From: a virus
DNA length: 43,095 bases
Strand: one strand, 5' to 3'
Virus genome (UHGV): UHGV-1678524
The first letter of the stretch is position 1, and every line of letters starts with the position of its first letter. The translations under genes and the position numbers were made by a program. The notes under the pieces were generated by a model. It was not told the DNA's origin and did no database searches. It saw only the letters and a program-made list of their open reading frames with translations. Below, in pieces: positions 1-22,446 of the stretch.

Positions 1-173
1 TACAGATAAACTTCTGTATCGGTCTCATATGCTTTTGGGTAAAGTTTAGAAATCTTGTCAGCGATACCTGCACCCATTAAATTCATACAGTTGCAACCGT
101 GACCAATGATGTCAAACTTACCTTTATCAAATGCGGCAAAGATATCGCCATTGATGATTTTTACAATACCCAT
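1..173 (-). CDS. Macro-domain protein, Poa1p-like ADP-ribose-1''-phosphate phosphatase family; N-terminal 57 aa only, gene runs off the window start
   Basis: Reverse-strand translation from ATG at 173: MGIVKIINGDIFAAFDKGKFDIIGHGCNCMNLMGAGIADKISKLYPKAYETDTEVYL. HGCNC...GAGIA...YPKA matches the yeast Poa1p-type macro signature (HSCNCNGSWGGGIA...YPKA) as recalled. Confidence 0.45.
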   Translation of the reverse strand, partial: MGIVKIINGDIFAAFDKGKFDIIGHGCNCMNLMGAGIADKISKLYPKAYETDTEVYL

Positions 174-374
174 TTAACATCTCTCCCAAGATTCTTTATC
201 TTCTGAAGGTTTTACACGTTGCCCTTCATGGTCTACCCAGATGCACCCACAACCTTCACAGATTACTGGCATTGCATAGCCAGCTTTGAAGTCATCTTCA
301 GTGATAAGACCTTTCAAATCACCTGTATCACGTCCGAACATTTCGATAGAACAGTCTTTGCAGAAGTCAGCCAT
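174..374 (-). CDS. Small Cys-rich protein, putative zinc ribbon
   Basis: 66 aa with CxxC ... CxGCGC pattern; tightly packed with flanking genes. Confidence 0.4.
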   Translation of the reverse strand: MADFCKDCSIEMFGRDTGDLKGLITEDDFKAGYAMPVICEGCGCIWVDHEGQRVKPSEDKESWERC

Positions 375-386
375 ATAATATACACC

Positions 387-614
387 TTATAGTTCAGTTT
401 CTCGTAATTCTTTACCTTCATCATAGAAGCATTTATAGAATGTATCTATAGAAATTCTGGCAAAGGTAAGGTCTTCAAAGTATTCTTCTGGAGTTATCCC
501 TGTAAAACTAAAACTATCGAGATTGTAAAATGGTATCACTGTGTTGTTACTAACGAAAACACATGCTGATGTAACTTCTCCAGTGTCTTTATCAATTACC
601 TCTAGAGCTTTCAT
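387..614 (-). CDS. Hypothetical protein
   Basis: 75-aa ORF co-oriented in a compact minus-strand gene array. Confidence 0.35.
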   Translation of the reverse strand: MKALEVIDKDTGEVTSACVFVSNNTVIPFYNLDSFSFTGITPEEYFEDLTFARISIDTFYKCFYDEGKELRETEL

Positions 615-915
615 AGCTTACCTTTTCGGTTAGTTCATATAAATCAACATGCTCAATACTGTCAATGTTGATATCAATCTTTTTGAAACGTTCTATCACT
701 TCGTTGTCAGTCATCCATATTAGACACCAATGGTTGTGTATGGACTCTTCAAGAAGGTCAACACAATCTTTAAAAGTCTTTGTGTCACTCCTTGTTCCGA
801 CTACTGCGATTGTTCCATACAACCACTTGCCATTACCATAAGATACTTGTGCTACGCCAACTTCTTTATCTTTCTCGTAGTAAACGGCTACAAAGTCTCT
901 TCCATTAATCTGCAT
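592..915 (-). CDS. Hypothetical protein
   Basis: 107-aa ORF, co-oriented; small overlap with neighbour. Confidence 0.35.
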   Translation of the reverse strand: MQINGRDFVAVYYEKDKEVGVAQVSYGNGKWLYGTIAVVGTRSDTKTFKDCVDLLEESIHNHWCLIWMTDNEVIERFKKIDINIDSIEHVDLYELTEKVSYESSRGN

Positions 916-917
916 AG

Positions 918-1187
918 TTACTTCCTCGTTTTAAGAACTGCTAAGATTTCTTTAGAGTCTGGTAAGAACCATGTGTAGTGATTCTCTTTGATTTCTGGAT
1001 GAGTGTCAACCTTTATTTTGCACTCTTTACCAACATGCTTAAGTTGTGCTGTGATACCTTGCATAAAAATATGACACATCACATTATCCATAATGGTTGG
1101 TGAGAAATCAATCCGCATATAAGTTTCTTTTGGCCGTGGTAGCAGTAAGTATCCTTCTACATAGAAAGTATCTTCATTCTCTGTCAT
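918..1187 (-). CDS. Hypothetical protein
   Basis: 89-aa ORF; ATGA-type stop/start overlap with the upstream gene at 1184-1187. Confidence 0.35.
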   Translation of the reverse strand: MTENEDTFYVEGYLLLPRPKETYMRIDFSPTIMDNVMCHIFMQGITAQLKHVGKECKIKVDTHPEIKENHYTWFLPDSKEILAVLKTRK

Positions 1188-1453
1188 TGCTGTTTGTTTC
1201 CTAATAAAATCATATCAATAAGGTTATTAGCTTTGATTGTGCACTGGTAAAAACCATCACGATAAAACTCAAGGGCTGCTGCCACATCACTACCGGTATT
1301 ACCTTTGACAGTGAATCTTGACTCCTCTTGAGTGTACTTGTCACTCTCACTTACTTGGGAGTTTTTGAATGTACTGTTCACTTTGTTCGTTGAACACCCT
1401 GACATAATTATCAGTAACACAAATATTATAAAACTCTGGCTTAGTTTTTTCAT
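1184..1453 (-). CDS. Putative lipoprotein, possible outer-membrane spanin (Rz1-like)
   Basis: N-terminus MKKLSQSFIIFVLLIIMSGC looks like a signal peptide with lipobox-like MSGC; its 5' end lies in another frame inside the 3' end of the upstream TM-protein gene. Confidence 0.35.
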   Translation of the reverse strand: MKKLSQSFIIFVLLIIMSGCSTNKVNSTFKNSQVSESDKYTQEESRFTVKGNTGSDVAAALEFYRDGFYQCTIKANNLIDMILLGNKQQ

Positions 1454-1694
1454 ATGTTAGTACCTCTTTTGTATGCTTATTCTTAGCAAGCACATCTTTC
1501 AAATCATTTTTGTAATTGGTGCTGAGTGTGGCTAAACCTTCCTGATAAGCATCTTTAGCAACACTTATTAGTTTCTCATTGTTTAGTTCAGTTTCAGCAA
1601 CTTGATAGTCTCTGTAAGAGTATCCTCCCCAGACACCTGCTCCAACTAAGAAAACAATTATGAAAGTAGCTTGACAGAACTCTTTAAATGTCAT
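1347..1694 (-). CDS. Putative inner-membrane spanin-like protein (N-terminal TM helix plus charged periplasmic region)
   Basis: 115 aa; hydrophobic N-terminus FIIVFLVGAGVWGGY then charged, helix-prone sequence; overlaps the lipoprotein gene by about 107 nt. Confidence 0.35.
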   Translation of the reverse strand: MTFKEFCQATFIIVFLVGAGVWGGYSYRDYQVAETELNNEKLISVAKDAYQEGLATLSTNYKNDLKDVLAKNKHTKEVLTYEKTKPEFYNICVTDNYVRVFNEQSEQYIQKLPSK

Positions 1695-1710
1695 TTAACA
1701 ATCTCCTGAA

Positions 1711-1737
1711 ATGAAAAAGGCTCCCGAAGGAGCCTGT
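1711..1737 (-). terminator. GC-rich hairpin plus U-tract (rho-independent terminator-like) on minus strand
   Basis: AGGCTCC-cgaa-GGAGCCT at 1718-1735; minus-strand transcript has the hairpin followed by UUUUUCAUUU. Confidence 0.45.
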
Positions 1738-1746
1738 ATCTTAACC

Positions 1747-2211
1747 TTAACCGAGGACTTTAGCAAGGACATTTGCAGCCATCGAAGAAGCTTTTGCAGC
1801 AGCAGCTACCCCAGCTTTGATAGCATTATCCTTGATAGCAGATACCGTTGCAGCATCAGTAAAGAGATAAGTAGTTGTTTTAGAACCACTTGTAAAGGAA
1901 AGCATAAGAGCAGTTTCCAGATTGAAAGAGCGATACGGAGCACCTTCTTTAACGATACCTTCAGCACCTAACTCTGAAGCCATACCCATATCATAGATAG
2001 TCATCAGGTTTTCTTTGTGTGCAGTCGTTGAACCAGCACCTTTGACGTGTTTCTTAACATTCAGAAGAGCACGGTACTCTCGGATGTTACCATCTGCTTT
2101 CACATTAACAGCACGGAATATTTTACCCTCAAAGTTGCTTTTGATAATGTTACGAACTACTTCAGATTTGTTTGCCGTAACGTCCAGTGCTACCGTAATG
2201 ATATTGTTCAT
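1747..2211 (-). CDS. Hypothetical protein
   Basis: 154-aa ORF with Ala-rich C-terminus; no recognisable motif. Confidence 0.4.
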   Translation of the reverse strand: MNNIITVALDVTANKSEVVRNIIKSNFEGKIFRAVNVKADGNIREYRALLNVKKHVKGAGSTTAHKENLMTIYDMGMASELGAEGIVKEGAPYRSFNLETALMLSFTSGSKTTTYLFTDAATVSAIKDNAIKAGVAAAAKASSMAANVLAKVLG

Positions 2212-2221
2212 AAGTTTTCTC

Positions 2222-2917
2222 TCAATGTTTAACTAACATGGTTTTAATGTGTGGAAGGATTCTGTTTACCTTCTGAACATTCTTCTCTGTATCTTCTATA
2301 AAGCATACTATATTAAAGTAAGGAAGAATGCAAGACTGAATCATCCTAACTTTCAAACTTTCTGCATTTATAGAGTTAGTCCCAAAACCACGCATAAAAA
2401 GCATGTAATCATGCTCTATGTTATGCCTTAAAAACATCTCAGTAGGTATTCTCTGGGATTCACCTCTCGCTGTCAAGAGTCCAATGGCAGCGTGATTAGC
2501 AATTGCATCAATAATACTAAAAACATACGTTGGTTTTGCTCTTACAGAGTCAAGAAGATTAGTGTACTGTGAGAATGACCCGTCAGTCAATTCCGTTGAG
2601 CAATCTTCGTGATTAAAATTTGTAAGAACACCATCAATATCTGCTAAGATGAGGTTACCTTTTTCTACTAGGTCTTTATTGACTATGACTAAACTGTCAC
2701 GTCTTACACCTATAGATTGTCCAGTCTCTTTGTCCACAACGTTCACAATCGGTTCTGGTGTGTGGAACTCTTCAAGTGAACATACAACTTCTCTTGCAGT
2801 GTCTTCAAAATCCCTGCACTGTTCTGGAGTCCATATACAGGAATCAAGACCTAACTCATGAGGATGCAAGTCGTAAGCATGACACAGTACTTCATCAGAC
2901 TTTCTTAATTTTTTCAT
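2222..2917 (-). CDS. Putative HAD-superfamily hydrolase domain protein (possible nucleotidase/phosphatase)
   Basis: LILADIDGVLTNF resembles HAD motif I (DxDGT/V). Confidence 0.3.
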   Translation of the reverse strand: MKKLRKSDEVLCHAYDLHPHELGLDSCIWTPEQCRDFEDTAREVVCSLEEFHTPEPIVNVVDKETGQSIGVRRDSLVIVNKDLVEKGNLILADIDGVLTNFNHEDCSTELTDGSFSQYTNLLDSVRAKPTYVFSIIDAIANHAAIGLLTARGESQRIPTEMFLRHNIEHDYMLFMRGFGTNSINAESLKVRMIQSCILPYFNIVCFIEDTEKNVQKVNRILPHIKTMLVKH

Positions 2918-3443
2918 GATTTACCTTAGAAATGTTTGTTGCAAATTCACATTGAGCAATGACTTTCATATTGTTATAGACATCTTGAGAGTATTTCTTA
3001 GCTTTAGGAATTTTGTACGAATACCCAGCATTATATGATGCTAAAACTTTTTGTAAAGTCTTCTTTGACTTTGGCTGACCATGTACCTTCGTCCAAAATT
3101 CAAGCTCTTTGTGTGTTTCCTTTGCAGCATAGTCAAAATCTTTTAAGAGTTTCTTTTTAGCCACATTAGGACTGATTTTGTTACGCTTTACAACAGTCTT
3201 CAAGTGATTCTGGAAGATACCATAATCATGTGTCTTTTTATTCTCTACATTCAGACCTAACTCTGACTCTTGTAAGGCTATAGCAGCTAGAGTGATACCC
3301 CAACCTTTACCCATATTATTCTCACCATACTGGTAAGCTTTTAACATGTTTACTTTTTGGCTAATTGATAGCTCTGGGCAGTCAACTGCATAAGATAAGT
3401 GTGCTGTAAACATTAAGCACAAACCTAGAATCAACTTCTTCAT
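2895..3443 (-). CDS. Lytic transglycosylase (SLT domain) with N-terminal signal peptide; candidate secreted endolysin or murein hydrolase
   Basis: MKKLILGLCLMFTAHLSYA signal peptide; SLT-like motifs ALQESELG, DYGIFQ, SYNAGYS. Confidence 0.55.
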   Translation of the reverse strand: MKKLILGLCLMFTAHLSYAVDCPELSISQKVNMLKAYQYGENNMGKGWGITLAAIALQESELGLNVENKKTHDYGIFQNHLKTVVKRNKISPNVAKKKLLKDFDYAAKETHKELEFWTKVHGQPKSKKTLQKVLASYNAGYSYKIPKAKKYSQDVYNNMKVIAQCEFATNISKVNHEKIKKV

Positions 3444-4738: not shown

Positions 4739-7099
4739 TTAAATTGTAGTTCCTTCTGGAACACACTTCACATCAAAGCCTAAGAACTTACTCACCTCAA
4801 TAGGTGACACTTTATTCCAATCTAAATGAGAAAGCAAGAAGTTTTCTTGTTTTCTTTTTGAAAGATAGTTTGTCACCTTGATGACCATACGGTCACCAGC
4901 TTTCTTAATTTTCTTGTACAGCTTTGTATCGTTGTCAAGGCATTCTTTCAAAGTTTGCAACCTACTAATAGTGTAAGTGTATGCAAACGGTGCAGCAACG
5001 TATTGGATTTTACCAAACATTGCCTCAACAGCATCTTCATTACCTTCTAAGAAGATAGTTTTGTTTGTGTCTCGTGAATAGCAATAACCACGAGAAATCT
5101 TCCTGTTATTGAACGTAAAGTTTCTGGCAATAATCCAACTACTTGTCAGGTCTAGGACACCATTCATATAGATACGTGTCATATACCTGTTATGATTAAT
5201 CCAGTGAACATCAGTTAAGCTGTCGTTCAAGAGCCTCTCATCTACTTCAATCCAGTCTTCTGGTATCTTTTTCCAATTTGCTTTTCGGAAAACATAGACT
5301 GTCTTTCCAATGACATTGGCAACTGACTTAGCTACATCATCTGGAGATGAGCAAAAACATTCACCATCAACAGTATCACCTACTGCCTTGATATAAATCT
5401 GAGGCTCTTCAATTGTGTCTAAGTCTTCTGACACCTCTGTGTATGAAGCTACACCTTCTGCTGGAACAGCTTTCCAGAGTTTTACAACACCTCTTACAGC
5501 TTCTTTACGTTGATAATGGTGTTCCTTATCAGACATCTTCACAATCTTTAACAAGCTTTTATCAAGTTTGTGTAGATTGATTAGGTCGTCTAACTCTTTT
5601 TCAGTCGAGAATACAAAGACAATACCATTGTATCTGTGAAACATACTTGACTCACTGGCATAGTCTCGACATGCACCACGCAAGATTTGATTGCGTCCTA
5701 CAGTCTTCTCAGTACCGTTTTTATTGCGACGGTCATTTATAACAAACAAAAACTGTTCAATTTGGCTTTTACGCATTGCGCCAAAGATATTGAACATACT
5801 TGCCTCTTGAGTGTAGGAAAGTGCTGTTGCACGAATCTTACTTTCTAAAGAGTTAAACTTAACATAAGCAACTGGGTCATAAAGATAATCTACTTTAGGG
5901 ATATTGTTTCCGTTCCTGTCAACCTTAATATTACCCTTACCATCACGTTCATAGATGACTGAGCCGTCTTCTGCGTAGATAATTCCACGACGAATGTTTA
6001 GTAATTCTTCTTCCAGAGAATCAAGCTTAACACCTCCCCACTCTAGCTTTGGACACACAGCATTAAACATCTCTCGTGAGTTCAAACGTAACTCAGCATA
6101 AGCCTGTGCAGCATCCATGAGTGTAGGTTGGTTATTAACTTTCTTGATAACATCCTTTGTAATTGCTTCAGTTATCTTTTTAGTAGCCTCAATGATAACA
6201 TTTTTTGTCGTGTCATTCATCTGCAATGCTTCACGAGAAGCTGCAATAGCAACTGAACCAATAGGCATGTAGATGTTTACAAGGTCTACGCTCCTACGGA
6301 AAAATTCTGGTAAGACTTTGAAGAAATCATCACCAAGTAATGCTTCCATATTCACTGGATAGGCAATATTACCCATCACCACATTAAACTCTGTCCTGTT
6401 AGCACCAGAACGCCAGCTTTGCTTATGAATCATGGCATCATAAACACCTTCTTCACGGGCAATGACATTCATATCTGCTAATACATCGTCATACTCGATA
6501 TTACTTTCTGGTTTTACAGCAAAGTATGAGTATACGTGACCAGCCTCTTCAAAGAACTTTGAGATACGATGGTCAGCAACTGCTACACGTACAGCTAAAC
6601 CATTAGGCTCTTTTGTTGGGTTGGTGGTCAGCTTAGTTACTTGAGGGATACCATTCTCAAGGTAAACAGAGTACTTATTAACAACACCATCAACATAGCT
6701 AGATACTGTGAATGACTGAGCAATTGCAAATGGGGATTTTGAGCCGATACCCATTGCACCAATGTAGTCATTAGAGTCATTCTTCGTAGAAGCCCCGTAG
6801 TTTAGGTACAAACTCATAACTTTATCATGAGTTAATCCAGTTCCAAAATCACGAACTTCAAAGTAAGGCTCAAAACGAGTAGGTAAATGCACATGGAACG
6901 GAATGTTCTCTTTTCCAGCCTCTTTCTGAGCATCTACTGCGTTACATGACAGTTCACGAATAACTGCCCTTTCTTTAAAGGTGTATACACCAGAACTCAA
7001 AAGGCTGAACATTTCGGGTGTCATTGTAATCTGTGCTTGAGACGTCTCTAAAGAAGTTGAACTCTTAATCACTTCTGCGTGGTCATTTACCATGCGCAT
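4739..7099 (-). CDS. rIIA: rIIA-like protein with N-terminal GHKL/Bergerat-fold ATPase domain
   Basis: 786 aa; N-box-like ERAVIRELSCNAVDA and G1-box-like VRDFGTGL; T4 rIIA has this domain. Confidence 0.6.
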   Translation of the reverse strand: MRMVNDHAEVIKSSTSLETSQAQITMTPEMFSLLSSGVYTFKERAVIRELSCNAVDAQKEAGKENIPFHVHLPTRFEPYFEVRDFGTGLTHDKVMSLYLNYGASTKNDSNDYIGAMGIGSKSPFAIAQSFTVSSYVDGVVNKYSVYLENGIPQVTKLTTNPTKEPNGLAVRVAVADHRISKFFEEAGHVYSYFAVKPESNIEYDDVLADMNVIAREEGVYDAMIHKQSWRSGANRTEFNVVMGNIAYPVNMEALLGDDFFKVLPEFFRRSVDLVNIYMPIGSVAIAASREALQMNDTTKNVIIEATKKITEAITKDVIKKVNNQPTLMDAAQAYAELRLNSREMFNAVCPKLEWGGVKLDSLEEELLNIRRGIIYAEDGSVIYERDGKGNIKVDRNGNNIPKVDYLYDPVAYVKFNSLESKIRATALSYTQEASMFNIFGAMRKSQIEQFLFVINDRRNKNGTEKTVGRNQILRGACRDYASESSMFHRYNGIVFVFSTEKELDDLINLHKLDKSLLKIVKMSDKEHHYQRKEAVRGVVKLWKAVPAEGVASYTEVSEDLDTIEEPQIYIKAVGDTVDGECFCSSPDDVAKSVANVIGKTVYVFRKANWKKIPEDWIEVDERLLNDSLTDVHWINHNRYMTRIYMNGVLDLTSSWIIARNFTFNNRKISRGYCYSRDTNKTIFLEGNEDAVEAMFGKIQYVAAPFAYTYTISRLQTLKECLDNDTKLYKKIKKAGDRMVIKVTNYLSKRKQENFLLSHLDWNKVSPIEVSKFLGFDVKCVPEGTTI

Positions 7100-7127
7100 A
7101 ATACTTTCCTCTTAGTTTACTGTTAAA

Positions 7128-7304
7128 TTACTTATTAAACATTTTACCAGAACCACCACATATAGGGCAACAGCCTGTTCTTGTATAACCTTCCCCATTA
7201 CAGAAGTCACATTTTTTGTGCTCTGCATAGTACTTGCAAAGAAGGTAAACGAACACTGCTACACTACCAAGTGACAGTAAAATTTCTATCCAATATGCTT
7301 GCAT
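7128..7304 (-). CDS. Small membrane protein with DnaJ-type CxxCxGxG zinc-finger-like C-terminus (58 aa, absent from ORF track)
   Basis: Manual translation: MQAYWIEILLSLGSVAVFVYLLCKYYAEHKKCDFCNGEGYTRTGCCPICGGSGKMFNK; fills the gap between rIIA-like gene and 7286-7633. Confidence 0.3.
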   Translation of the reverse strand: MQAYWIEILLSLGSVAVFVYLLCKYYAEHKKCDFCNGEGYTRTGCCPICGGSGKMFNK

Positions 7305-7633
7305 GACTCACCTCTCATATTCTTGTAAAGGATGAAGCTTCTATCATGGACGATACTTGTAGACACTGCAAAGTTACTTTCAAGTATCTGTTTGTTTGGA
7401 TTGTAGAAGCTTTCTTTAAACTCGTCAAGTGCAAATTGGTGATTGTCTGGAAGACCTTTTACACAGACCTTTATTGTAATTGCTGCTGCAACCTTGCCAG
7501 TCAGTTCTTCTTTAGCTGCTACTAAGATTTTGTTGATGAACTTATGACCATTTTCAGGCTTCTTGATGTTCTCCCATCGCTCTTCTAAGACAATATTGAT
7601 GTTCATTTCTTTGATTTTCATAATTTTCACCAA
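7286..7633 (-). CDS. Hypothetical protein
   Basis: 115-aa ORF, co-oriented. Confidence 0.35.
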   Translation of the reverse strand: MVKIMKIKEMNINIVLEERWENIKKPENGHKFINKILVAAKEELTGKVAAAITIKVCVKGLPDNHQFALDEFKESFYNPNKQILESNFAVSTSIVHDRSFILYKNMRGESCKHIG

Positions 7634-7971
7634 GTCCAGCTAACAAGTATTCCATCAAAACCTTTTGCTAAAGGTACACCCTCGTGCTCATAAAATTCAG
7701 GATTAACTTCGAATCCACGATTTTCAATATACTCTATCATGTATTTCATTACAAAGCTAATCTCTTCGTAGTCATCTGGGTCTCTGCCAAAGAACTGTTC
7801 TATGACAAACATACCTTCTTTTGTAGCAAATTGGCAGTGATGATTGTAGATACCTTCACAAAACTTTTCAAACTTTTCTTTACCGAGAACTTCAAGGATG
7901 TCTGTATAGGCAACTTGTAAGTATTTCGGTTGTACAGGTTTATTGTTAAACCATATGGAAAGGTTGTCCAT
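7627..7971 (-). CDS. Hypothetical protein
   Basis: 114-aa ORF, co-oriented. Confidence 0.35.
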   Translation of the reverse strand: MDNLSIWFNNKPVQPKYLQVAYTDILEVLGKEKFEKFCEGIYNHHCQFATKEGMFVIEQFFGRDPDDYEEISFVMKYMIEYIENRGFEVNPEFYEHEGVPLAKGFDGILVSWTW

Positions 7972-7984
7972 AGCAATCTCCAGA

Positions 7985-8012
7985 AATTAAAAAGGCTCCC
8001 GTAGGAGCCTCT
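7985..8012 (-). terminator. Hairpin plus U-tract, minus strand
   Basis: GGCTCC-cgta-GGAGCC at 7994-8009; minus transcript followed by UUUUUAAUUU; 23 nt upstream of the next start codon. Confidence 0.45.
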
Positions 8013-8024
8013 TATCATATACTT

Positions 8025-9806
8025 TTAAAGTTGCTTGTCAATATTATTTCGAATATCACCAAGAGATGTGTAACCGAACTGCTCAGAGTCACTAAAGACT
8101 AAACGTAAAGCACAAGCTGGATGTTCAAGCACATCTGCAAAGCTCTGGAATCCATAGCCATCTACAGCTTTCAGCTTATCACCATCCCACATAGGTGCTA
8201 CACCACCAAAAGCAGACTTCTTAACACCACTATCTGTTTTAGGGTCTTTTGCAAGCATAATCTCTTTACCACCAATGCTTGCCAGAGTTGCTTTGACAGC
8301 AAATGCAAAGGTGTCACGAGTCATGTACTGGTAAGTGTAAGAACCTACACCAAACACTACGTTAGAGCTTGCAAAACCCATTTCATACAAACGCTTCAGG
8401 ATTTCGTTTGCACGTTCCAACGTGATAGAGTCACCATAGATGAGGCCAATGTGCTCATCCAGTACCTTAAAGCCTTTAGAGTTGATAGTCCCTCCAAAGG
8501 TGTTATACAAGGTCTTAATAGCCCCATCAATCTCTGCTACAGGACGTGTTACAACGTTTGCAGAACCAACCATATAAGCATTTTTCAACAGCACTGTATC
8601 AGCAACTTCAAAGTCTTCTCTGTCAACAACCATCTCGTAGCCTTCTGACAGTAGCCATCCAGCAATACCATAGTTGATGTTTTCAAGCTTCATGTTCAGA
8701 ACAGCATTCAGCATTGTGTCGCTGGCTTCCAGCTTGCTTAGGTGTTCATAGTAAGCCTTTTTAGCACACTCTAAGTGGATTGCTTTATAACCTGTGACAA
8801 TATGTACAGGGTCACCAGAGTCAGGACGAATTACCAGTCTGCCGTCACGTTCCATAATCTCTTTACGAAGTGCTGGTAAGATTTCTGATACAGTTCTCCA
8901 GAAATTATAAGTATCTGAAACAATACTTACAATACCAGTTGGGTAAGTTTCTGTTAAGAATCGACGGAAGGTTTGCAACTCACCTTTAAAGCGCCTTTCT
9001 TCTTCAATCAACTCATTCCCACCTTCCCAAGCAATGTTTGCACACATGACAGAGTGTTCAGTGGCTGGTACAGAACCACCAATATCGGAAATTGGATAGG
9101 ACTGTCCATAAATGCGTTTAGCTGTATATACAGCAGGGAAGCTATCAGTCCCTTTAAAGCTGGTTAAGTGGCCTACAGCGTTAAATGCGTCATCAGTAAA
9201 GCCAGACATACCACGCATAGCAAAGTCATGGCACTGATAAGGTAAATGCAAGGCATTGTCGCAAGTAAGGTCAGCCCACTTCTTACAGATACGTTTGTAG
9301 TGCAATGCAATAGTTGCAATGGTACAAGCCTTCCAAATCTCAGCAGAGAAAGCATCTTCCAGATACCCTGCTACCCAATGGAAACCTGAAACAGTGTTCT
9401 GGAATACAATCATTGGGACACGCATAGGAACAACTGTACCTTCTTCTACAGCGTATACTTCAACTGGTAGATAACCTAAGTCGTGAAGTGCTTCCCAATG
9501 TTCTCGACCAATAGCATCTTTACCCAGAACACCGTTCATGACTTCTAAGATTTCGTCAATTGCTTCTTTTTTGTCACGTTCAAAGAAGGTGGCATTCCAG
9601 TGGTCTATCAAGTAATCTTTAACAAAACGTTGAATACCAAAAGCTACTACACCGTCAATTGCTAAAGGGCTGTTAAACCATTTATCACTACGTGGTGTCA
9701 GGTTGAACATTAGGTACTCTGTTGCACTAGGATACTGATAAATATGGCCAGATTTGTAAGCATCTGCGTTTAAACCTGCTGGTACTGCATAAAGTGATTT
9801 AGTCAT
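8025..9806 (-). CDS. Nicotinamide phosphoribosyltransferase family protein (NAMPT/NadV-like; possibly Namat-type)
   Basis: 593 aa; segments align with human NAMPT as recalled: DAYKSGHIYQYP vs DSYKVTHYKQYP, YLPVEVYAVEEGTVVP vs HLPIEIKAVPEGFVIP, SVPATEHSVM vs SVPAAEHSTI, IVSIVSDTYNFW vs VSVVSDSYDIY, VIRPDSGDP vs IIRPDSGNP. Confidence 0.75.
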   Translation of the reverse strand: MTKSLYAVPAGLNADAYKSGHIYQYPSATEYLMFNLTPRSDKWFNSPLAIDGVVAFGIQRFVKDYLIDHWNATFFERDKKEAIDEILEVMNGVLGKDAIGREHWEALHDLGYLPVEVYAVEEGTVVPMRVPMIVFQNTVSGFHWVAGYLEDAFSAEIWKACTIATIALHYKRICKKWADLTCDNALHLPYQCHDFAMRGMSGFTDDAFNAVGHLTSFKGTDSFPAVYTAKRIYGQSYPISDIGGSVPATEHSVMCANIAWEGGNELIEEERRFKGELQTFRRFLTETYPTGIVSIVSDTYNFWRTVSEILPALRKEIMERDGRLVIRPDSGDPVHIVTGYKAIHLECAKKAYYEHLSKLEASDTMLNAVLNMKLENINYGIAGWLLSEGYEMVVDREDFEVADTVLLKNAYMVGSANVVTRPVAEIDGAIKTLYNTFGGTINSKGFKVLDEHIGLIYGDSITLERANEILKRLYEMGFASSNVVFGVGSYTYQYMTRDTFAFAVKATLASIGGKEIMLAKDPKTDSGVKKSAFGGVAPMWDGDKLKAVDGYGFQSFADVLEHPACALRLVFSDSEQFGYTSLGDIRNNIDKQL

Positions 9807-9851
9807 CTTTTAATCTCTCTCAAAATGGGGCTTTGAAGCCCCTATAAAGTT

Positions 9852-10733
9852 TTAATCAATGGTTACTACAGTAACTTGGGCATAATGTGTTAATCCACGG
9901 TCTTTAGCTTCCCCTAAAGAGTTTGTAGTGTAGATATGGTCAATACCATTGTCAAGTAAGTTTTCAACACCTTTAGAGAAAATACCATGAGTTACATAGA
10001 GTTCCACACGTTTTGCACCTGCTTCACGAAGATGTTTAGCTGCTTCTATGAAGGTTCGGCCTCCATCACAAATATCATCAAGAATCATGACAGTTTTATC
10101 GGTCAAATCAACAGCATCAAGGATTCGCATACCAGTAATTTCACCAGTCTTAAGGTTGCGTACTTTAGACATTGTGATATATGGTTTATCCACCTCTTTA
10201 GCAGTCTCTTCAGTCTTCTTAGCTGCACCTGCATCTGGGGCTACCAAGAAATCAATGCGTGGGTCACTTGCAAAGTGTGCTGCTACATCTTTTTGCTTCA
10301 TGCTCTGAAAGCACTTAAATAAGTTTTCTGCAACATTACTGTGAGGGTCAAGAGCACATACTGCATCAAAACCCATTGCATTAACGAGGTTGGCAAAAGC
10401 TTTCAGTGCTGCTGAATCACCTTTGAACATATGGCGGTCATATCGAGCATTCGGTAAGAACCCGAAAACAACGGTTTTCATCGCTGATTTGTATGGAACA
10501 AGGCTGTCAACGGCATCCTTAGCCAAAGCTAATGCAAACAGTGTATCTTTATCATACCCCTGCACAGTCAATATAACATTGTCAATCTTACCAGCATTAC
10601 GCTCAGTAAACTTAACAAAATCTTCAGAGAAGTTTCCACCAATTTCTCCAGATGGGAATTGGGTGATATTAAATTTTTCTGTGTGGAAGAATTTCTCTTG
10701 TGCGGTGACAACGGCTTCAATAATAGTTTTCAT
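9852..10733 (-). CDS. Ribose-phosphate pyrophosphokinase family protein (Prs-like; possibly Adps-type ADPR pyrophosphokinase)
   Basis: 293 aa; FPSGEIGG N-terminal motif, LDPHS, and PRPP-binding-loop-like DDICDGGRT. Confidence 0.7.
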   Translation of the reverse strand: MKTIIEAVVTAQEKFFHTEKFNITQFPSGEIGGNFSEDFVKFTERNAGKIDNVILTVQGYDKDTLFALALAKDAVDSLVPYKSAMKTVVFGFLPNARYDRHMFKGDSAALKAFANLVNAMGFDAVCALDPHSNVAENLFKCFQSMKQKDVAAHFASDPRIDFLVAPDAGAAKKTEETAKEVDKPYITMSKVRNLKTGEITGMRILDAVDLTDKTVMILDDICDGGRTFIEAAKHLREAGAKRVELYVTHGIFSKGVENLLDNGIDHIYTTNSLGEAKDRGLTHYAQVTVVTID

Positions 10734-10744
10734 AGCTCTCTCTC

Positions 10745-11050
10745 TTAATCAAAAGTTACGTTTGTTACTGCCATTGCAGATTTGCATTTTGCAGGGTCTA
10801 CAACGTGATAAAGTACACTACAGTTGCCTGTGCTATCTGGTACAGGTTTAACCCATTGTTGCTTGACAGTTGGTTCTCCTAAGTCTTTGTAAGAGCCATC
10901 TGTAAAATTGTTTACCATCTCAAGTGCAATTGGTTCTGGAACATGACCTCGTATCATGTACATTTCACAACCATTGCCACCCTCACTGACTAGTGGTAAA
11001 ATCTCCCACTTCTCTTTAGCCATTGTAAGTTGCCCTATAAACTGTCTCAA
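10745..11050 (-). CDS. Hypothetical protein
   Basis: 101-aa ORF, co-oriented. Confidence 0.35.
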   Translation of the reverse strand: MRQFIGQLTMAKEKWEILPLVSEGGNGCEMYMIRGHVPEPIALEMVNNFTDGSYKDLGEPTVKQQWVKPVPDSTGNCSVLYHVVDPAKCKSAMAVTNVTFD

Positions 11051-11531
11051 ACTTCAACAGGAGAGATATTGCCAAATCTGTATAGTTGTTGTCAAGCACA
11101 TCTGGCATATTATTTTTGATATATTTCTCTTGCTCTTCATAGGTCATCTTAGGGATGCTTAGGAGTCTATCTCCTTGCTTCTGGTTATCAGCTTTAGTTT
11201 GGATAAACCAGTTCGCACAGTGATGCTCACCACCTTTTGTAACAGGTTTATGGTGACCTAATGTGAAGGACTGGTTACCTGTGTATCTGCAAAGCTTATT
11301 GAGTACTGCAATAGTGTTCTTCACAACAAAACATTCATACATGTTATCTATGGTGTAGTGTGGGTAATATTGGAATAGTGCTCTTTCACGGGTACTATCA
11401 CGATTCCAGAGAATCATGTGATTTGAGTTAGAAGGGTCGTATTGGTGGGAGTCAATGAACTCTTGACGTTCCTCGAAGCTGAGTCTTAGAACTGACATTG
11501 CAGCAGAACGTTTTAGATTCGACAGATACAT
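11016..11531 (-). CDS. Hypothetical protein
   Basis: 171-aa ORF; start may be an internal Met given overlap with the upstream gene. Confidence 0.35.
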   Translation of the reverse strand: MYLSNLKRSAAMSVLRLSFEERQEFIDSHQYDPSNSNHMILWNRDSTRERALFQYYPHYTIDNMYECFVVKNTIAVLNKLCRYTGNQSFTLGHHKPVTKGGEHHCANWFIQTKADNQKQGDRLLSIPKMTYEEQEKYIKNNMPDVLDNNYTDLAISLLLKFETVYRATYNG

Positions 11532-11582
11532 ATTATCTCCAAAATAAAAAGGGAACCTTTACAGTCCCCTTATAGTATCTGT

Positions 11583-11903
11583 TTACTGAGCTACTTTCAA
11601 GATGCTTGTGAACGAGATTTCACTCTCATCCATAAACTCTTTTGCTTCTCCAGTAACTTTTACAAAGTTATCTAGGCAGATAATCTTCTTATCTTTCTTG
11701 CTGTAGGTTAGCTTAACCTTTTCAATATCTTTCTTAGAGCTTTCCTCTTCATTGAAGAGTTTTACAGCCTCTTTGAATGGTAGGTATGAGCCGTCATCAT
11801 CACTAATGAACCCTGTACCACAGTAGTAGTAGTTATACTCTTTAGCCATAAATTGGCACAGTACGAAAATCTGTAATTTGCGAGTGTTATAAACTTTGCT
11901 CAT
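11583..11903 (-). CDS. Hypothetical protein
   Basis: 106-aa ORF. Confidence 0.35.
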   Translation of the reverse strand: MSKVYNTRKLQIFVLCQFMAKEYNYYYCGTGFISDDDGSYLPFKEAVKLFNEEESSKKDIEKVKLTYSKKDKKIICLDNFVKVTGEAKEFMDESEISFTSILKVAQ

Positions 11904-11905
11904 GA

Positions 11906-12238
11906 TTATTTAGCCTTTTTGTTACGTTTACGGTTACGAGATTTCTTAGCTGCACGTTTAATTGCTGCTGCACCAGTTGGTCGATGTGCTTGTTTTTTAC
12001 CACCTTTTCCACGACCTACATAGATACTTTTCATAATCTCATTAGCCAGCTTTTCATCCATCTTGAAGTTTTGCATAAGATGGGTCACATCAACACCAGT
12101 GAGCATACCTAATGATGCCAATGCTGCTTTTACTTTTGATTTAAAACTGTTCCAGATTCCCATTTCACTATCTCTCAAACTTTTATACAGAACTTGGTTA
12201 ATTCTTCTGGAGTAATACCGACTCTCCACATTCAACAA
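11906..12238 (-). CDS. Hypothetical protein with highly basic C-terminal tail
   Basis: C-terminus KKQAHRPTGAAAIKRAAKKSRNRKRNKKAK. Confidence 0.35.
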   Translation of the reverse strand: MLNVESRYYSRRINQVLYKSLRDSEMGIWNSFKSKVKAALASLGMLTGVDVTHLMQNFKMDEKLANEIMKSIYVGRGKGGKKQAHRPTGAAAIKRAAKKSRNRKRNKKAK

Positions 12239-12406
12239 AAGAGGTTTGTTTTGTAGTACTCTCCAAACTTTTCATCTAAGACTAGGAATACACCTGCTCC
12301 AACTATACAAGCAAGAGATTCTAAACCACCCTTCCCGTGGTTATCAGATGTAAACTTAGTCCACTCATCTAATAACTCGCTGTTGTATGTGTATAGCCCT
12401 GCTATA

Positions 12407-12892
12407 CTACTCTGCTCGCCATTGACAGTCGCCTTGCCATCCATACTCTTTTCTCCAAAGGTTTTGGTTATCAGAACCACGATAAGGTTTAACTGTTGGT
12501 TTAGAAGCATCATACTTACCGTCAACTACCACGTCAACATATTTCATCACATCTAGGTGGATTTTTTCGTGCAGTTGAAAACCTGTCCAAAGCCATATAG
12601 ACTTTTCTGGATAAACAGTTTTAATACGCTTGCATATGTTGGTAACCTCTTGAATGTTTCTATCATCCAGAGGCTCCCCACCAAGTATTGATAGCCCACT
12701 AATGGCCTTATCATCCATTAACTTAATGATGCCGTAGAGGTTTGCATAAGTAAACTCTTTACCAGCATTAAACTTCCAAGACTCCCTGTTAAAGCAGCCT
12801 TCACAGTGATGCTTGCAACCAGCTACGAAGAGGCTTACACGAACCCCTTCACCATTAGCTGTGTCAAATGGTCTAATCTCCATGTAATTCAT
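12407..12892 (-). CDS. nrdG: Anaerobic ribonucleotide reductase activating protein (radical SAM)
   Basis: 161 aa; CKHHCEGC radical-SAM cysteine cluster near N-terminus; adjacent to nrdD. Confidence 0.7.
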   Translation of the reverse strand: MNYMEIRPFDTANGEGVRVSLFVAGCKHHCEGCFNRESWKFNAGKEFTYANLYGIIKLMDDKAISGLSILGGEPLDDRNIQEVTNICKRIKTVYPEKSIWLWTGFQLHEKIHLDVMKYVDVVVDGKYDASKPTVKPYRGSDNQNLWRKEYGWQGDCQWRAE

Positions 12893-12951
12893 CTAGTTAC
12901 CTCACCAATACATATGAACGTTCTTTAAACCTTTTCTTCGAATTGTTTTAC

Positions 12952-20651: not shown

Positions 20652-20976
20652 GGTATTTCTCCAAGTTTCTTTTTAGATACAACCAACCATCGTCAGTCCT
20701 TTCTACACCCATAAAGAGTGGAGCCATCACAACTTTCCCAAAAGTATTTCTGTGTTGGCAGATTTCAAAGGAATACTCTTTCTCAATGTCAATCCCGTAT
20801 TTGTACAGAACTGCTTTTAAAACTTGTTCATTGTCCAGAAGTGTATCTGGAGTCTCACCATATTTTTCTAGTAACGGGTCATTCATGAACACCGTCATAG
20901 AAATATTGTAGTTTGAGAAGTGGCTCTTCTGAGCCACACCCTCTTTATTAATGTTCTGTGAATCCATTATAACCAA
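20644..20976 (-). CDS. Hypothetical protein
   Basis: 110-aa ORF. Confidence 0.35.
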   Translation of the reverse strand: MVIMDSQNINKEGVAQKSHFSNYNISMTVFMNDPLLEKYGETPDTLLDNEQVLKAVLYKYGIDIEKEYSFEICQHRNTFGKVVMAPLFMGVERTDDGWLYLKRNLEKYRV

Positions 20977-21703
20977 CCCCTTTTAACCAGCACTTCAGGT
21001 TATTAGCATCATAATTCAGTTTCGGGTATGAGGTTACATGGAACTGCTCACCATCATAATAGACAATATCTGCAATCCATAGTCCATTCTCTTTACAGAA
21101 GTCTTTATCTGCTTTAGAAGTAATTGGATTAACTTCTACAAAACCATCTACACCCAAATCCTTTAAGCTACCTACAATACCTTTGCAGATAACGCATGTC
21201 TCAGATACTACCACAAAAAGTTCTTGGCTTTCAAGTTCTACAATGTATTCACCAAGCTGTACTTTAGGGAGATTCGATTGCTTCATAATCTTCCCATCTG
21301 CTGCACGAACAATCGCATACCACTCTTTACCATCAACTACTGACATTCTGATAATACACTCTTGACCAGTACGCTTTTCAATGTCTGCAAGACGTTTTAA
21401 AGCTTCTTCATAGTTATCTGTGTACTTCAGGTCATTATTATGGCAAACAGCTTTCATAGCACCGTTATGGTCATGCTGTGACAGGTAAATCAAACCGTCA
21501 AGAACATATTGCAAATCTGCCTGAGCATCCAGTGTCTCAATGGGGTCTTTCTCTTCAATTGCTTTTACAAGCTCTTTTGCTTCTTCAAGCATACACAGAG
21601 ATTGAGATTTTAAAGATTCCCAATACTCATTACTGTAAGGTTGTTTTTGAGTGTTTCCACAACGAAGGTTCCAGTTTTTTACTGATTCTCTTGAGTTAAA
21701 CAT
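20948..21703 (-). CDS. Hypothetical protein (weak MazG-like all-alpha NTP pyrophosphohydrolase resemblance in N-terminal half)
   Basis: 251 aa; EEAKELVKAIEEKDPIETLDAQADLQYVLDGLIY loosely resembles the MazG EExxE...D pattern; not diagnostic. Confidence 0.3.
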   Translation of the reverse strand: MFNSRESVKNWNLRCGNTQKQPYSNEYWESLKSQSLCMLEEAKELVKAIEEKDPIETLDAQADLQYVLDGLIYLSQHDHNGAMKAVCHNNDLKYTDNYEEALKRLADIEKRTGQECIIRMSVVDGKEWYAIVRAADGKIMKQSNLPKVQLGEYIVELESQELFVVVSETCVICKGIVGSLKDLGVDGFVEVNPITSKADKDFCKENGLWIADIVYYDGEQFHVTSYPKLNYDANNLKCWLKGVGYNGFTEH

Positions 21704-21948: not shown

Positions 21949-22446
21949 TCAAGCACAATTTGCTTTCATTACCTTATGGATTCTTTTTTCAGCATCTTCA
22001 TAAGTTTCTTTAGTAATAAACTTAATTGCTGCAATATTGGCATTGTAGAAGAGTCTGAGCTTCGAGTCAATCCTTTTTGTCATTACATCGAACTTATGTT
22101 GAAGGTTTGCTTCACCATAAACTAGGCCACCTTTTGTGTAGTAGGTTTGGATAATGTAAAAGTCAAAAAATTCTTTTCCAAAGCTCTCAATATCTTTTTT
22201 AATATACTCAGAAGAAGTCTCGTAAGTCATCCAATCACTTTCCTTAGTGACTATTTTCTTCCGAGTCTTACCAGCAACTTTTCTTTTGGTCACGCTATTA
22301 AACTGTTTCCTTCCGATATAATATTGTCCAGTCTTCTTACAGTGTACTAAATAGACAAAGCCAAAATGTTTAGTGGGGTCAACTTCCCCACATAAAGATA
22401 CCCAATGACCATAGGTAGGGCAATTACCAAATCCTTTAATCTTCAT
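21949..22446 (-). CDS. GIY-YIG nuclease-like protein (possible free-standing homing endonuclease)
   Basis: FVYLVHCKKTGQYYIGRKQ fits GIY-(10-11)-YIG with following Arg; downstream YGEAN and FYNANIA resemble the conserved Glu/Asn region of I-TevI-type domains. Confidence 0.4.
   Translation of the reverse strand: MKIKGFGNCPTYGHWVSLCGEVDPTKHFGFVYLVHCKKTGQYYIGRKQFNSVTKRKVAGKTRKKIVTKESDWMTYETSSEYIKKDIESFGKEFFDFYIIQTYYTKGGLVYGEANLQHKFDVMTKRIDSKLRLFYNANIAAIKFITKETYEDAEKRIHKVMKANCA

Follow-up and report, generated by a model that had tools for sequence, protein, structure and literature searches.

A Poa1p-like macrodomain gene at the edge of a Felixounavirus genome window, and its possible role as an ADP-ribose-1''-phosphate phosphatase alongside NARP1

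Introduction

NARP1 was discovered in the Felixounavirus Bas63 (JohannRWettstein), where genes 79-80 encode it, and makes NAD+ from ADP-ribose (ADPR), nicotinamide and ATP. Its first enzyme, the ADP-ribose pyrophosphate synthetase Adps, pyrophosphorylates ADP-ribose, and its second, the nicotinamide ADP-ribose transferase Namat, joins the product to nicotinamide to give NAD+. Defence proteins of the aRES type phosphorolyse NAD+ to nicotinamide and ADP-ribose-1''-phosphate (ADPR-1P), and NARP1 cannot use the latter (10.64898/2026.01.28.702374). Osterman et al. 2026 reported a Poa1p-like enzyme, Adpp, encoded within two genes in 15% of NARP1 operons (10.64898/2026.01.28.702374); Adpp converts ADPR-1P to ADPR, restores NAD+ synthesis and is needed for NARP1 to act against aRES (10.64898/2026.01.28.702374). 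Mutations in Adpp abolish anti-defence, and the primer table of that work lists H24A for the Adpp of Vibrio phage Gary (10.64898/2026.01.28.702374). The authors worked with aRES systems from E. coli, Klebsiella and Enterobacter (10.64898/2026.01.28.702374).

Phage macrodomains have also been linked to resistance against DarTG2. The T4 gene tk.4 is conditionally essential against DarTG2 and has been named adfM (10.1101/2025.11.20.689424). PhiKZ gp104 AdfM removes the ADP-ribose that DarT2 places on DNA; mutation of a conserved Asn in its catalytic site lowers activity, and the construct list names N23A. Two further reference enzymes are Saccharomyces cerevisiae Poa1p (PDB 6LFQ), an ADP-ribose-1''-phosphate phosphatase, and human TARG1/OARD1 (PDB 4J5R), which deacetylates O-acetyl-ADP-ribose (OAADPr) and removes Glu-linked and DNA-linked ADP-ribose.

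We focus here on a gene cut by the edge of a viral DNA stretch of 43,095 nucleotides (UHGV-1678524; the window is this whole stretch). A search with the first 3 kb of the window hit 258 phage records (identity up to 96%). Nearly all of them are Felixounavirus, the FelixO1-like myoviruses that infect Salmonella, E. coli and Shigella, and on this similarity we assign the window to a FelixO1-like myovirus of that genus.

The gene fragment and the full-length protein

The window edge cuts a minus-strand gene of which positions 1..173 hold the first 57 codons; translation from 173 to 1 gives the stop-free peptide MGIVKIINGDIFAAFDKGKFDIIGHGCNCMNLMGAGIADKISKLYPKAYETDTEVYL, and the frame continues past the window start. 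The earlier note had described the fragment in these terms, and the peptide that it quoted is, correctly, the first 50 of the 57 residues. The ATG lies at 173-171 (-) and is preceded, 7 nt upstream, by a putative Shine-Dalgarno-like GGGAGAG at 181..187 (-), read from the sequence. An ORF of 66 aa without an assigned function (174..374, -; from the ORF list) directly abuts the gene and is kept at the same place in relatives (Bas63 gp94). Its TAA (176-174) abuts the start codon of the macrodomain gene, and the two genes are therefore probably co-transcribed and translationally coupled. A promoter scan near the macrodomain gene gave no signal above chance. At the other end of the gene, outside the window, relatives carry a strong terminator-like hairpin about 30 nt past the stop codon, with a 17-bp stem and a T-run (L001 3317-3358 (-)), and the gene that follows is convergent; the macrodomain gene is therefore the last of a long leftward transcription block.

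The fragment is identical in 56 of 57 positions to the N-terminus of 261-aa orthologues in Felixounavirus. These full-length genes measure 786 nt, which places about 613 nt beyond window position 1; the protein (gp95, bas63_0095, in Bas63) is conserved in about 260 Felixounavirus records, where it is named either 'putative phosphatase' or 'O-acetyl-ADP-ribose deacetylase'. By itself, the 57-aa fragment matches PHROG 335 ('phosphatase') at E 5e-27 and reaches no Pfam family, so that it is the full-length orthologue that identifies the macrodomain: it matches PF01661 over residues 25-141 with 32.1 bits (cut-off 22) and upholds the family named in the earlier note. The domain has the three-layer alpha/beta/alpha macro fold, of which the fragment holds beta1, H25 and N28 of the catalytic loop and the first Gly-rich, phosphate-binding loop.

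The protein consists of a Poa1p-like macrodomain (residues 1-157) and a clade-specific beta-rich domain (about 170-261), the latter having no counterpart in the reading of the earlier note. Proteins of this two-domain form group in one clade (86% bootstrap) that is restricted to Ounavirinae-like phages. The fragment thus begins a Poa1p-like macrodomain enzyme that belongs to the phage PHROG 335 / Tk.4 / Adpp family: this family is recognisable and already annotated, and the gene is a new member of a recently characterised kind.

Active-site residues

Across the family alignment, H25, G26, N28, C29, M33, G36, A38, P46, G72, N86, L87, T89, Q90, P124, G127 and G129 are invariant, and from these residues three motifs can be written, HGCNC-x3-MGAGIA, NLYTQ and P-x-IGAGIGG. 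The description of the fragment as bearing a Poa1p-type signature was a fair one, the first motif being essentially the HSCNC-x3-WGGGIA of Poa1p. In 30 homologues the two Gly-rich loops, M33-G-A-G-I-A38 and P124-x-I-G-A-G-I-G-G132, vary little or not at all, and both line up with the equivalent loops of TARG1. Two of the invariant residues, both inside the 57-residue fragment, align with residues of the characterised phage enzymes, H25 with H24 of Gary Adpp and N28 with N23 of PhiKZ AdfM.

In the profile-to-PDB comparison TARG1 comes first (4e-17, whole domain), and it too has the His, but its catalytic residues do not recur. In HMMER and BLAST alignments, K84 of TARG1 falls on the invariant Q90, D125 falls on G131 of the IGAGIGG loop, and TARG1 has Ser in place of N28. 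There is no conserved Lys in the NLYTQ motif across the family alignment, and N-x-Y-x-Q is common to the Adpps, T4 Tk.4 and the Felix clade; PhiKZ AdfM has a Lys within the motif, which MAFFT puts one column later, so that the register is uncertain by one residue. DarG, we presume, shares the catalytic Lys of TARG1, as K80.

These comparisons bear on a broader reading in which the protein would be a general ADP-ribose-derivative hydrolase, acting on O-acetyl-ADP-ribose or on protein or RNA mono-ADP-ribosylated by host ADP-ribosyltransferase defences. Macrodomains are generally promiscuous, the closest solved structure is that of an enzyme with such activities, and several GenBank records carry the deacetylase name. 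That name is an automatic transfer, however, both catalytic residues of TARG1 are gone, and among about 110 genes of relatives no ADP-ribosyltransferase or sirtuin partner is annotated; we consider this reading distinctly improbable. The proposal of the earlier note that the enzyme could reverse ADP-ribosylation now finds a direct precedent in Tk.4/AdfM, the homologue in T4, and it may apply here by homology.

A sponge or hydrolase for Thoeris-type ADPR signals (gcADPR, His-ADPR) is the reading to which we give the least weight of all. The conserved residues of catalytic type argue for an enzyme acting at C1'' and not for a sponge, the known anti-Thoeris proteins are unrelated, and the literature searched holds no phage macrodomain with activity on gcADPR or His-ADPR, so that the earlier suggestion of a degradation of ADPR-based immune signals found no support there. 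A Thoeris link by way of a Migulavirinae preprint was dropped, the macrodomain in that work being the host's ThsA.

Genomic context and NARP1

From the macrodomain gene to beyond 10.7 kb, every gene of the window lies on the minus strand. The order, starting from the macrodomain gene, is four small ORFs, the spanins, a gene called 'polynucleotide kinase', an SLT-like gene, rIIB, rIIA and three small ORFs, followed by a NAMPT-like gene at 8025..9806 (-; Pfam NAPRTase, 119.6 bits, and NAMPT_N) and a PRPP-synthetase-like gene at 9852..10733 (-; Pribosyltran 48 bits, Pribosyl_synth 37 bits). The NAD+-related module that had been noticed about 8 kb away is thus real. Over its full length (8025-10733), it is 94.1% identical in nucleotides to Bas63 genes 79-80: the first of the two genes encodes Namat, the second NARP1 enzyme (Bas63_0080 is the characterised Namat), and the second encodes Adps, the first NARP1 enzyme, orthologous to Bas63_0079. 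As the orthologue of Bas63 NARP1, the module consumes ADP-ribose and is not classical NMN salvage; for the same reason, and because the gene called 'NAD synthetase' in relatives encodes a SegE GIY-YIG endonuclease, we set aside a NARP2 reading of the pair (NAMPT plus NMNAT). The link to NAD+ regeneration that the earlier note had drawn has thereby gained a defined pathway and, with Adpp, a precedent, and a part of this gene in it is plausible by homology.

The macrodomain gene lies 7.85 kb (about 7.9 kb), or 15 genes, from NARP1 in the same leftward block, with Adps 9.7 kb upstream, and bas63_0095 is likewise on the same strand as NARP1 and 15 genes downstream of it. At 23 loci whose two-domain homologues are 41-99% identical, the distance from the macrodomain gene to Namat is 7.5-9.6 kb, with one exception, and that to Adps is 9.3-9.8 kb, save in two loci where the flank cuts Adps off. 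The exception is a Felixounavirus contig (L019, IMGVR_UViG_3300045988_004931), whose positions 1-3200 correspond to window 6974-12925 with a clean deletion of about 3.1 kb, equivalent to window 7629-10726, which takes one small ORF together with Namat and Adps. This natural NARP1-less variant retains an intact 261-aa macrodomain gene at 95% identity, which argues either for a role independent of NARP1 or for a recent deletion.

A proposed ADP-ribose-1''-phosphate phosphatase acting with NARP1

The best explanation, which we hold tentatively and at somewhat less than an even chance, is that the gene encodes an Adpp-type ADPR-1''-phosphate phosphatase which, in trans, supplies the step that NARP1 lacks against aRES. 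The macrodomain would bind ADP-ribose through its two glycine-rich loops, and a conserved site made up of H25, N28 and Q90 would remove, by hydrolysis, the group attached to C1'' of the distal ribose. As its substrate we consider ADP-ribose-1''-phosphate most likely, which arises when RES-domain (aRES) proteins phosphorolyse NAD+ and which would be dephosphorylated to ADP-ribose; the phage's own Adps and then Namat would turn the freed ADP-ribose back into NAD+. The pathway would be a 'split' NARP1-AP, with the macrodomain enzyme acting in trans and a diffusible metabolite as the link.

Several comparisons are consistent with this. First of all, the likeness to Gary Adpp (KNV71_gp137) extends to a Poa1p-like macrodomain, to the essential His (H24, H25 here) and to the common motifs H-x-C-N-C / M-G-x-G-I-A, N-x-Y-x-Q and P-x-I-G-x-G. 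Second, the macrodomain is 31-36% identical to Adpps of NARP1 operons (31% to that of Gary, 34-36% to the others) and 40.6% to Namat-adjacent metagenomic members (L074/L084), no other characterised relative reaching a higher identity than the Adpps. Third, NARP1 itself (Adps and Namat) is encoded in this phage's genome too, and the recurrence of Namat at a similar distance in the 23 two-domain loci favours the Adpp role, although synteny inside a single phage subfamily is a weak argument that two genes are functionally linked. Finally, there is overlap between the bacteria from which the aRES systems come and the enterobacteria that these phages infect, which counts for the phosphatase.

There are also differences. 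Adpp genes lie inside the NARP1 operon, whereas this one is 15 genes away and so outside the two-gene distance used to recognise them; the mechanism does not call for such adjacency, as its intermediate can diffuse between the enzymes. All Adpps known so far consist of one domain and measure about 150-170 aa, whereas this protein has an extra C-terminal domain of about 100 aa, which a small-molecule phosphatase role does not explain and which counts against the Adpp reading. Felixounavirus is absent from Table S1 of the aRES preprint, and its text makes no statement on whether Felixounavirus was tried (10.64898/2026.01.28.702374).

A metagenomic member of the macrodomain family (P0026; HGANC, NLYTQ, IGAGIGG), found on just two short contigs (L007 1250-2269, L008 261-1280), carries, in the same polypeptide, a cREC_REC 'cyclic-phosphate processing receiver' domain (PF20274, 30.8 bits; cut-off 27). 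Its architecture suggests a two-step enzyme that might take ADPr>P to ADPR-1P and then to ADPR, and the fusion fits small-molecule ADPR-phosphate chemistry in this family. It belongs, on the other hand, to predicted contexts of RNA repair as well as of ADPr>P, and can also be quoted for a role in RNA repair like that of yeast Poa1p, in which the substrate would be the by-product ADPR-1''-phosphate left by Tpt1/KptA when it removes 2'-phosphates in tRNA repair, and the macrodomain enzyme would act in concert with the nearby 'polynucleotide kinase'. Poa1p-like motifs are indeed present, and the 'polynucleotide kinase' gene lies 2 kb upstream (2222-2917) and has a distant homologue with a weak HAD_PNKP match. 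The window's own 'polynucleotide kinase' gives no Pfam match at E<0.01, however, and the annotation of 74 kb from a relative's genome lists neither an RNA ligase nor Tpt1/KptA nor a 2H phosphoesterase. To our knowledge, moreover, repair of the T4 Pnkp/Rnl type leaves no 2'-phosphate. We regard RNA repair as very unlikely.

Comparison with AdfM-type enzymes

The main alternative, rather unlikely in our estimate, is that the protein is a DNA ADP-ribosyl glycohydrolase that would undo the ADP-ribose placed by DarT2 (DarTG2) on thymidines of phage single-stranded DNA, independently of NARP1; here the C-terminal domain might help to engage DNA or the replication machinery. T4 Tk.4 is 35% identical over residues 3-157, the whole macrodomain (pairwise E 5e-24), with HGCNC, NLYTQ and IGAGIG identical and Gln at the position of the TARG1 Lys; both are early-region phage genes labelled 'phosphatase', and loss of tk.4 sensitises T4 to DarTG2. 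This T4 evidence is genetic only, and Tk.4 is a single domain of 155 aa as against 261 aa in two domains here. The macrodomain gene is kept in the NARP1-deleted contig, and in most phages that carry a member of the family, the T4-like loci examined among them, no NARP1 lies within 10 kb of it, in which they differ from the present phage.

PhiKZ AdfM, whose important N23 has its counterpart in the invariant N28, is the biochemically proven case, but it is a Lys-type macrodomain with only 22.5% identity, in which a PTK motif provides Lys where this family has Gln and in which H25 has no equivalent; the replacement of the TARG1 Lys by an invariant Gln weighs against a glycohydrolase of that kind. 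The top NCBIfam and PADLOC matches are to DarG, with 47.7 and 47.1 bits, the former far under the family cut-off of 250 (NF048014), and the DarT-binding C-terminal domain of DarG is absent; we therefore rejected the DarG antitoxin as an identity for the protein.

Sequence comparison within the family does not separate Adpp from AdfM: identities are equal, the tree is flat, and among the three groups compared (NARP1-adjacent, T4 and Felix) there is no discriminating position. Outside the two-domain clade, the neighbour-joining tree is a star (bootstrap at most 8%), with NARP1-adjacent members scattered and no support for grouping the present protein with T4. When 15 NARP1-adjacent sequences were set against 7 of the T4 clade, four weakly discriminating columns emerged, and the Felix clade is mixed at them. 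Eighteen core positions, on the other hand, are at least 85% conserved across the three groups, and this shared core fits a single chemistry, hydrolysis at C1'' of ADP-ribose with different leaving groups. Such comparisons suggest that phosphatase chemistry may be family-wide and usable by any phage that bears NARP1. The roles of Adpp and AdfM are not mutually exclusive, and the same site may also strip DarT2 ADP-ribose from DNA. A combined reading, in which the Felixounavirus protein would be both the phosphatase of a 'split' NARP1-AP and a bifunctional C1''-hydrolase effective against aRES and DarT2, with the C-terminal domain as a targeting or inhibitor module that would bind, for example, DNA, Adps/Namat or a host defence protein, strikes us as fairly unlikely. 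Our literature search returned nothing on the macrodomain of Felix O1, nor on AdfM or DarTG2 in Felixounavirus. Taken as a whole, the functional proposals of the earlier note are partly supported.

The C-terminal domain

The C-terminal domain is an orphan and the only truly uncharacterised element of the protein. In the AlphaFold model, residues from about 158 to 261 fold into one helix, then six beta-strands, then another helix, an arrangement that is not Rossmann-like. The only invariant residues of the region are P, G and Y, and nothing there therefore looks catalytic. The C-terminal 105 aa gave no match in Pfam, a BFVD search with the domain gave none outside its own family, and when 1.84 billion representatives were searched exhaustively with HMMER, only proteins of the same architecture and repeat artefacts came back. 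A cREC_REC domain (PF20274) was considered for this region and rejected, as there is no Pfam match and the AlphaFold model is not receiver-like; the one protein that does carry cREC_REC is P0026, which is distinct from the present one.

Implications

Bas63 is a close relative of the present phage and the model in which NARP1 was discovered, for which mutants and assays already exist. If the gp95 orthologue is an ADPR-1''-phosphatase, the aRES-resistant NARP1-AP group would gain about 250 Felixounavirus genomes of the phage collection; these genomes fail the operon-adjacency criterion, and prevalence estimates of the counter-defence would change. If the split, bifunctional reading holds, surveys based on operon adjacency (15% of NARP1 phages) would substantially undercount aRES-proof phages, and one small enzyme would beat two mechanistically unrelated defences. 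If the protein is an AdfM, instead or also, anti-DarTG2 factors would extend to a genus of therapeutic phages, Felixounaviruses being in wide use against Salmonella and E. coli. Either way, the macrodomain gene is a candidate host-range determinant, and its family could be used to ask whether a single macrodomain active site of the Gln type can deal with phosphate as well as thymine as the leaving group.

Other genes of the window and related records

The 231-aa product of 2222-2917 (-) is called 'polynucleotide kinase / PseT' in many relatives, a kinase function for which we find no support; a homologue (L006 5675-6361, 35% identical) gives only a weak match to HAD_PNKP, a phosphatase domain. 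Beside the spanins, the gene at 2895-3443 (-) encodes 182 aa with a sub-threshold match to the SLT lytic transglycosylases (18.6 against 21.3 bits), and its homologue in L006 also matches SLT weakly; the protein may be endolysin-like or remodel murein. In the early region, a gene at 20948-21703 (-) encodes a MazG-like nucleotide pyrophosphatase of 251 aa (PRA-PH domain, 26.3 bits), which may bear on counter-defence that involves nucleotides or alarmones.

The gene at 21949-22446 (-), 165 aa, is a SegE-type GIY-YIG endonuclease (PF19835, 99.4 bits). It is misannotated as 'NAD synthetase' in RefSeq relatives (BPS17W1 gp049), which could falsely suggest an extra NAD+ gene. The record of Staphylococcus phage SA1 (GU169904) and two 'Campylobacter' records carry Felixounavirus sequence at about 94% identity, NARP1 included, and are probably contaminated or chimeric.
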